A stretch of 64,000 nt of DNA. It comes from Escherichia coli (GTDB taxonomy: Bacteria; Pseudomonadota; Gammaproteobacteria; Enterobacterales; Enterobacteriaceae). The DNA is taken from the NCBI RefSeq assembly GCF_003334255.1, contig NZ_QOWU01000021.1, one strand, 5' to 3'. The translations under genes were made by a program, and so were the position numbers. Below are positions 58,684 through 59,004 of this stretch, piece by piece. The first letter of the stretch is position 1; each line of letters starts with the position of its first letter. The notes beneath the pieces are model-generated. The model was given only the letters and a program-made list of their open reading frames with translations. It did not search any database and was not told where the DNA came from.

Positions 58684-58760
58684 AACCCTCTCCTTAGCTT
58701 ATACAGATATCATTGAGTGACCGGTGTTGAGAAATCCGGTGGTTTAGGGGGATAGAGCAA

Positions 58761-58780
58761 CAATCGCACCACTCTTGCCA
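58761..58780 (-). promoter_or_regulatory. candidate sigma-54 (-24/-12) promoter upstream of ygfK
   Basis: Minus strand reads TGGCAAGAGTGGTGCG; GG and GC spaced as in consensus TGGCACG-N4-TTGCW; ~70 nt upstream of ygfK start; coordinates +/-1. Confidence 0.45.
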
Positions 58781-59004
58781 GGTTTGGCGGGAAATATAAA
58801 AAAATGTGAGGCGGCTCGAAACTTAAGGGCTTTTTGTGAATGAACTCACAGGTGCTAAATGAGAATTAAAATCACTCCTGAAAATTATTATTGCCAGCCC
58901 ATTTATCAATTTTTCTCTTTTCTCAAAATCAGTGATTCCTTATCATTATGATAATGAGTGCCGGAAGGATTAAATATTTGAACGCAATCGTTTAACTACG
59001 TTTT

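Follow-up and report, generated by a model that had tools for sequence, protein, structure and literature searches.

The mocA (ygfJ)-ygfK intergenic spacer of Escherichia coli separates two genes of the same strand by 321 bp. It occupies positions 58684-59004 of a 64,000-nt stretch of contig NZ_QOWU01000021.1 (assembly GCF_003334255.1); this whole stretch, at its full length, is called the window below. The gene downstream of the spacer, ygfK, leads the operon ygfK-ssnA-ygfM-xdhD, which encodes the first committed steps of anaerobic uric-acid degradation by gut bacteria, and its expression has been reported to be induced by uric acid. We describe here the control region of this operon, which combines a conserved sigma-54 promoter with a 13-bp dyad, TATCA-N3-TGATA, centred about 200 bp upstream of the predicted transcription start and most likely bound by the enhancer-binding protein YgeV. 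The spacer is found at 95-100% identity in 5169 of 5426 complete E. coli genomes, and among the complete E. coli genome records listed none has an annotated feature beneath it. The features needed first are the following (centres are counted from the predicted start):

55585-58683, minus strand: coding sequence of ygfK, 1032 amino acids, first gene of the operon (open reading frame list and K-12 annotation).
59005-59583, minus strand: coding sequence of mocA (ygfJ), the upstream neighbour of ygfK (open reading frame list and K-12 annotation).
58772-58756, minus strand: sigma-54 promoter 17-mer GTGGTGCGATTGTTGCT, the published motif, with the -24 GG at 58770-58769 and the -12 GC at 58758-58757.
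58745, minus strand: predicted ygfK transcription start, placed from the -24/-12 position, 62 nt upstream of the ATG at 58683.
58780-58765, minus strand: sigma-54 register TGGCAAGAGTGGTGCG of the initial annotation, an earlier reading of this DNA; the GG-N10-GC spacing is right and the register overlaps the published -24 element.
58940-58954, minus strand: 15-bp palindrome TTATCATtATGATAA, with the core TATCA-taa-TGATA at 58941-58953 (centre -202); proposed YgeV site (site 1).
58920-58933, minus strand: second, degenerate upstream site (site 2), with the right half TGAGA(A) at 58925-58920; centre about -182, 20 bp from site 1.
58927-58937, minus strand: 11-bp palindrome AATCA-N-TGATT (AATCAcTGATT on the minus strand, AATCAgTGATT on the plus strand), overlapping the left part of site 2.

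Occupancy of this spacer by sigma-54 is known from chromatin immunoprecipitation sequencing (ChIP-seq). The peak at ygfK, OS31, has a fold-above-threshold value of 26 and was assigned the motif GTGGTGCGATTGTTGCT (Bonocora 2015, PLoS Genet). The same study predicted the ygfK start 62 nt from the gene and referred to the promoter as a predicted entry in EcoCyc that predates the ChIP-seq data. In its account of earlier microarray work, ygfK responds to the level of sigma-54 and is among five microarray-predicted genes confirmed by ChIP-seq (Bonocora 2015). The sigma-54 promoter of the ygfK operon is already documented, and the main point of the initial annotation, which had proposed such a promoter together with upstream palindromes, is not new. 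All three sequences on which that proposal was built are present in the DNA: TGGCAAGAGTGGTGCG at 58780-58765 on the minus strand and the palindromes at 58927-58937 and 58940-58954. Its promoter is indeed there, but it was read in a register 9 nt too far upstream. In the published register, TGGTGC-N5-TTGCT (58771-58757), GG and GC are exactly 10 nt apart, as is required of a sigma-54 promoter, and the -24 element TGGTGC includes what had been taken as the -12 GC.

To score the two registers, we used a position weight matrix (PWM) trained on the 41 other intergenic ChIP-seq sites, for which the training median is 16.1 bits and the weakest site has 8.1 bits. The published register GTGGTGCGATTGTTGCT reached 12.1 bits and rank 4 of about 128,000 window positions, and the register of the initial annotation TGGCAAGAGTGGTGCG 10.4 bits and rank 15. 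For the simple pattern TGGCA-N7-TGC, the window has 7 occurrences where 4.07 are expected, so that by its sequence alone TGGCAAGAGTGGTGCG does not stand out from chance. For the comparison between species, 80 ygfK loci from different species were collected, and sigma-54 matches were counted at 11 bits or more. In 76 of the 80 loci, the top PWM match upstream of ygfK was in the published register, at 70-180 nt from the ATG. This register does not vary within Escherichia and comes nearer to the consensus in distant taxa (e.g., CTGGCGTGATTGTTGCT with 17 bits), with 17-19 bits in Edwardsiella, Morganella and Buttiauxella. We prefer the published register because these comparative data decide between the two, and they identify it, and not the one proposed initially, as the conserved promoter. 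Transcription of the operon would then start at or close to 58745.

Next to the promoter, the initial annotation had named the two palindromes as activator sites. As palindromes they are not exceptional. A shuffled spacer is expected to contain 1.8 palindromes with 5-nt arms, and 11% of the shuffled spacers have one with 7-nt arms. These statistics are not significant, so that conservation alone sets the two apart. The 11-bp palindrome is confined to Escherichia and already degenerate in Citrobacter MGH106; judged in this way, it is no better than chance and appears irrelevant to the promoter. The 15-bp palindrome, about 200 bp upstream of the start, has a conserved core, and only this half of the earlier proposal can be kept. 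A second perfect 15-bp palindrome, TCATTATGATAATGA at 58943-58957, overlaps the first with a shift of 3 nt; it is there because of the ATTATGATAAT periodicity of the sequence, and the TATCA/TGATA register alone is conserved.

In a MAFFT alignment of 16 Enterobacterales spacers and in searches that tolerated up to one mismatch, the core TATCA-N3-TGATA was nearly invariant across Enterobacterales, Aeromonas, Vibrionaceae and Shewanella. It was present in 73 of the 77 ygfK loci that have a sigma-54 site. Position frequencies limit the motif to T-A-T-C-A-W-W-N-T-G-A-T-A, and the flanks are free. The dyad starts mostly at -160/-161 or at -181/-182 from the 17-mer, and the step of 21 nt between these two classes corresponds to about two helical turns. 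About 152 nt before the ygfK sigma-54 site, Lonsdalea and Symbiopectobacterium have a symmetric variant in its place, TCTCAAAATGAGA (TCTCA-N3-TGAGA). The degenerate site 2 of E. coli corresponds to a conserved TTTGA(G/T)AA that follows the dyad at 20-21 nt in the ygfK loci. In Vibrionaceae and Shewanella, site 2 is a full second dyad, TATTA-N3-TGATA, 19 nt away.

The dyad is not restricted to ygfK. The 35-kb cluster of K-12 contains 6 dyad matches against 1.1 expected, and 5 of the 6 lie in the four spacers with ChIP-seq sigma-54 sites, namely those of xdhA, ygeV/ygeW (two dyads), ygfK and ygfT/uacT. We then scanned 81 loci for sigma-54 PWM matches of at least 11 bits and sought the dyad 60-300 nt upstream of each match. 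It was found at 72 of the 76 matches upstream of ygfK, at 23 of 24 upstream of ygeW, at all 6 upstream of ygfM, at 2 of 3 upstream of ygfT and at 1 of 2 upstream of xdhA. Taken together, 104 of the 111 sigma-54 promoters of these five genes carry it. The corresponding number for intragenic PWM matches is 1 of 85, and in Markov shuffles of the upstream windows the dyad appears 2.3% of the time. Being symmetric, conserved and located at least 100 bp upstream of the -24/-12 element, it behaves as would be expected if a dedicated enhancer-binding protein used it as its upstream activating site.

In the window, the dyad of the ygfT/uacT spacer (43445-43765) is TCTCATATTGATA at 43571-43583. The published ygfT sigma-54 site, at 43749-43765 on the plus strand, follows 178 nt downstream. 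The same dyad is 122 nt from a weak sigma-54-like sequence, CTGGCACTCCACGAGCA, at 43461-43445 on the minus strand, which faces uacT. Orthologous permease genes have TTGGCACAGCTTACGCA with a dyad that starts at -120 to -131. This single dyad may serve two divergent promoters.

Between the promoter and the palindromes, the initial annotation had noted only AT-rich DNA. The composition was described correctly (35.6% G+C, compared to 51.5% in the whole window), but a perfect site for the cAMP receptor protein (CRP), a CRP-like site and a conserved block within this DNA were overlooked. These and a further block at the mocA end of the spacer are:

58835-58850, minus strand: perfect CRP core TGTGAgttcatTCACA, centre -97.5, 10/10 match to TGTGA-N6-TCACA.
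58805-58820, minus strand: promoter-proximal CRP-like site TTCGAgccgccTCACA (TTCGA-N6-TCACA), centre -67.5, 7/10 match in E. coli.
58857-58875, minus strand: conserved block GTGATTTTAATTCTCATTT, centre about -121, between the proposed activator sites and the CRP site.
58973-58994, minus strand: conserved block TAAACGATTGCGTTCAAATATT, immediately past the mocA stop codon.

The core at 58835-58850 is the only perfect TGTGA-N6-TCACA in the 64-kb window, in which 0.06 would be expected. With 30 bp between their centres at -97.5 and -67.5, the perfect CRP site and the CRP-like site lie on one side of the helix. In the comparative loci, a CRP-like match was called when at least 8 of the 10 core positions of TGTGA-N6-TCACA were present. 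Such matches start at -78/-79 from the 17-mer in 39 of 76 ygfK loci and at -48/-49 in 35 of 76. At ygeW they start at -58 to -60 in 19 of 24 loci, and the ygfM and ygfT promoters have a CRP-like start at -48. Among the intragenic controls, 3 of 85 gave a match, at scattered positions. Binding of CRP in vitro is known from genomic systematic evolution of ligands by exponential enrichment (SELEX), in which ygfK, ygeV<>ygeW and ygfT<>ygfU are targets at the resolution of the spacer. In addition, uric acid degradation was reported to be slower in the presence of glucose, and a Crp site has been recognised between ygeV and ygeW. At the -67.5 site of ygfK, the conserved position suggests that CRP would bind there as well.

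Searches for other elements in the spacer gave the following. No integration host factor (IHF) core WATCAANNNNTTR was found with up to one mismatch in 58684-59004, and no sigma-70-type promoter was found on the ygfK strand of the spacer. The block GTGATTTTAATTCTCATTT is kept across Enterobacterales, with recognisable forms in Morganella and Aeromonas. The block TAAACGATTGCGTTCAAATATT is kept in Escherichia, Citrobacter, Klebsiella indica and Edwardsiella. A sequence similar to the latter, AGCGATTGCGTTCACA, is seen at the CRP-like position of Buttiauxella ygeW promoters.

As the protein that recognises the dyad, YgeV is the obvious candidate. No other gene of the 35-kb K-12 cluster carries an annotation as sigma-54-dependent regulator. 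The genes ygeV and ygeW are divergent, and the dyads in the ygeV-ygeW spacer adjoin the regulator gene itself. YgeV consists of a PAS domain, a Sigma54_activat domain (E 2e-70), an AAA lid and an HTH_8 domain (E 3e-13), and has no receiver domain. The genes ygfK-ssnA-ygfM-xdhD are listed among the YgeV iModulon genes in the gene table of the Reg-Seq preprint, and, as cited in the iModulon paper, a ygeV mutant shows lower ygfT expression. The iModulon listing and the ChIP-seq peak at ygfK (fold-above-threshold value 26) bear out the suggestion of the initial annotation that the operon is under a sigma-54 activator. Its general picture, a sigma-54 promoter with an enhancer-type palindrome, was right, although details were partly wrong. 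Taken together, these observations make it most likely that the dyad TATCA-N3-TGATA is bound by YgeV.

The following sequence of events would account for these data. Sigma-54 RNA polymerase would form a closed complex on TGGTGC-N5-TTGCT (58771-58757), with the start predicted at 58745. Activation would need an enhancer-binding protein, most likely YgeV, which would occupy the 13-bp dyad at -202 and, more weakly, a site at -182 with the conserved half TGAGA. cAMP-CRP, bound at -97.5 and -67.5, would bend the spacer and take over the role that IHF plays at other sigma-54 promoters. CRP is proposed as the bending protein because the spacer has neither an IHF core nor a sigma-70-type promoter on the ygfK strand. 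Through this bend, YgeV would reach the closed complex, and the operon would become repressible by glucose. We consider a sigma-54 promoter with YgeV on the dyad and CRP-assisted looping to be the best explanation overall, and a probable one.

Several observations weigh against this explanation. On the side of the promoter, the E. coli site is sub-consensus, with TGGTGC in place of TGGCAC and a score well below the training median (12.1 against 16.1 bits), and genomic SELEX with the sigma-54 holoenzyme detected the ygeV/ygeW spacer and not ygfK. On the side of the dyad, the distances depart in part from helical phase, with minor start classes at -173 and -193, and the centres of its half-sites are only 8-9 bp apart, which is short for a helix-turn-helix (HTH) dimer. 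On the side of YgeV, we found in the literature no binding motif, no footprint and no binding to this DNA, and a massively parallel reporter study that included ygfK (Reg-Seq) did not detect consistent footprints for the genes of the YgeV iModulon under the conditions used there. The species with the variant dyad have the same YgeV recognition helix, so that protein and DNA do not covary; in Lonsdalea and Symbiopectobacterium, it is the first HTH helix that differs (ALDISM or ELEISV for ELGIGI). In the Aeromonas and Vibrionaceae loci, no activator gene was found within 10 kb of ygfK. Finally, the sites truly used by the activator could be the conserved blocks at -121 and -238.

These last points lead to the most serious of the alternatives, namely that another regulator, e.g., a LysR-type protein or a repressor, binds the dyad, and that YgeV acts elsewhere, for instance at the blocks at -121 or -238. 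The dyad is compatible with the generic LysR pattern T-N11-A, the two blocks have no assigned binder, and the assignment of YgeV to the dyad is indirect, its HTH showing no covariation with the dyad. However, LysR-type sites sit near -65 of sigma-70 promoters, whereas the dyad tracks the sigma-54 promoters of at least five operons at 120-220 nt, which is typical of enhancer sites. Moreover, the annotation of the K-12 cluster contains no further regulator gene, and dyads adjoin ygeV. We regard another binder as unlikely, though it deserves to be kept in mind. The same palindrome had also been compared with a Fur box in the initial annotation; a Fur box would imply that iron controls the operon. 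The palindrome is rich in A+T and has ATAAT-like repeats, and YgfK and XdhD have been described as iron-sulfur proteins. Yet the best match to the Fur consensus GATAATGATAATCATTATC is 13/19, a value reached or exceeded at 22 positions of the window, and the orthologues keep TATCA and TGATA alone. Their spacer and flanks vary (e.g., TATCAAAGTGATA), and neither the ATAAT repeats nor an array of GATAAT hexamers is conserved. Since the match is not close, is often equalled elsewhere in the window and lacks conservation as a hexamer array, we rejected the Fur box, which is scarcely credible here.

Two further alternatives concern the promoter. If the register TGGCAAG-N4-GTGCG (58780-58765) were the functional one in E. 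coli, transcription would start near 58754. This register has the right GG-N10-GC spacing and a -24 half, TGGCA, that is better than that of the conserved register; its 10.4 bits exceed the weakest training site, and a shift of 9 nt is below the resolution of ChIP-seq, the peak centre being 18 bp from the assigned motif centre (Bonocora 2015). But it is missing outside Escherichia and one Citrobacter, while the other register stands in 76 of the 80 loci, and even within Escherichia its key bases vary (GGC to GGT in E. whittamii, AAG to AAT in strain E69). In addition, GTGCG makes a poor -12 half, the motif that MEME gave to the ChIP-seq peak is in the other register (Bonocora 2015), and the peak centre lies downstream of both registers and hence farther from this one. 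Start of transcription from this register is thus highly improbable. Alternatively, ygfK could be transcribed mainly from a CRP-dependent sigma-70 promoter or by read-through from mocA, with the sigma-54 site poised and rarely productive. This would fit with the perfect CRP site, with ygfK as a CRP SELEX target, with mocA on the same strand and no terminator predicted between mocA and ygfK, and with the report that many sigma-54 sites are transcriptionally inactive under laboratory conditions (Bonocora 2015). The sequence TATATT at 58798-58793 resembles a -10 hexamer. However, the search for a sigma-70-type promoter on this strand was negative, and TATATT is not conserved and would shift the centres of the CRP sites to about -56.5 and -26.5, both of them non-activating positions. 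Both CRP-like sites keep a fixed distance from the sigma-54 element, which argues that they serve the sigma-54 promoter, and we find it very unlikely that ygfK is mainly transcribed in another way.

Returning to the sigma-54 promoter with YgeV on the dyad and CRP in the loop, a wider proposal can be formulated, which we regard as evenly balanced. TATCA-N3-TGA(T/G)A would be the YgeV operator of one sigma-54 regulon for reductive uric-acid metabolism, comprising ygfK, ygeW, ygfM/xdhD, ygfT, xdhA and a urate permease, in Enterobacterales, Aeromonas, Vibrionaceae and Shewanella. At ygfK, the bend would come from two in-phase CRP dimers and not from IHF, and catabolite repression would be architectural.

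The leader of ygfK was inspected as well. One hairpin was recognised close to the predicted 5' end of the mRNA:

58720-58740, minus strand: leader hairpin ACCGG-N11-CCGGT, weak in E. coli (z score +1.3).

In E. coli its stability is not above that of shuffled sequences. At the same leader position, Trabulsiella, Hafnia, Edwardsiella and Photobacterium have a hairpin of other sequence, with z scores down to -4.2. A hairpin at the 5' end of the ygfK leader may act as an mRNA-stabilising 5' stem-loop. No Rfam family matched the spacer or the ygfK leader at E <= 1.

Two other sigma-54 matches of the window should be mentioned. The top PWM match, CTGTCGCGATTTTTGCA at 23876-23892 on the plus strand, scores 15.3 bits and lies 184 nt upstream of a 364-amino-acid open reading frame. 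It is without the invariant GG and does not appear in the main-text tables of the ChIP-seq paper; we rejected it as a probable scoring artefact. The sequence TGAGCACGAACCTTGCA at 60087-60103 on the plus strand lies inside yqeC, about 1.3 kb from the ygfK control region, and points in the opposite direction. It is an experimentally validated intragenic sigma-54 promoter for yqeB (Bonocora 2015).

Hyperuricaemia and gout give the uric-acid pathway its current medical interest, and published work has re-engineered the pathway in probiotic E. coli by swapping native control regions. For such work, the useful outcome is the correct -24/-12 register, a precise candidate for the YgeV operator and the positions of the CRP sites, which show the bases to keep or to remove when the cluster is rewired. 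The locus itself is ordinary and largely known, and the motif of the activator site is the only new detail; the dyad as the likely YgeV operator, together with an architecture based on CRP, appears to be the part that has not been described before.

The closest comparison is OS31 (Bonocora 2015), which is the same DNA as the ygfK promoter analysed here; that paper gives neither an upstream activating site nor CRP sites for it. The sister promoters ygeW, xdhA and ygfT (OS29, OS30 and OS32 of Bonocora) are built like ygfK, with a sigma-54 site and a TATCA-N3-TGA(T/G)A dyad 130-215 nt upstream, and ygeW and ygfT share with it a CRP-like site at a fixed offset. The distance of the dyad differs: it is at about -213 in ygeW, with a second site 28 nt away, and at about -131 in xdhA. 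Unlike its sister promoters, ygfK has two CRP-like sites.

Among the well-known sigma-54 systems, the prpBCDE promoter of E. coli and Salmonella, which depends on the activator PrpR, IHF and CRP, resembles ygfK in several respects. Both control a catabolic sigma-54 operon, the activator has a ligand-sensing N-terminus and not a receiver, and CRP exerts catabolite control. However, prpBCDE uses an IHF site, whereas ygfK has two in-phase CRP-like sites in the looping region and no IHF core, and the activator-site sequence of prpBCDE is unrelated to the ygfK dyad. The enhancer sites of NtrC (TGCACC-N5-GGTGCA) and of NifA-type activators (TGT-N10-ACA) are, like the ygfK dyad, dyad-symmetric and at a distance of over 100 bp upstream; they often come in tandem, with a spacing of about two helical turns, and act by looping. 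Compared to these sites, the ygfK dyad is shorter (13 bp) and its sequence is unrelated.

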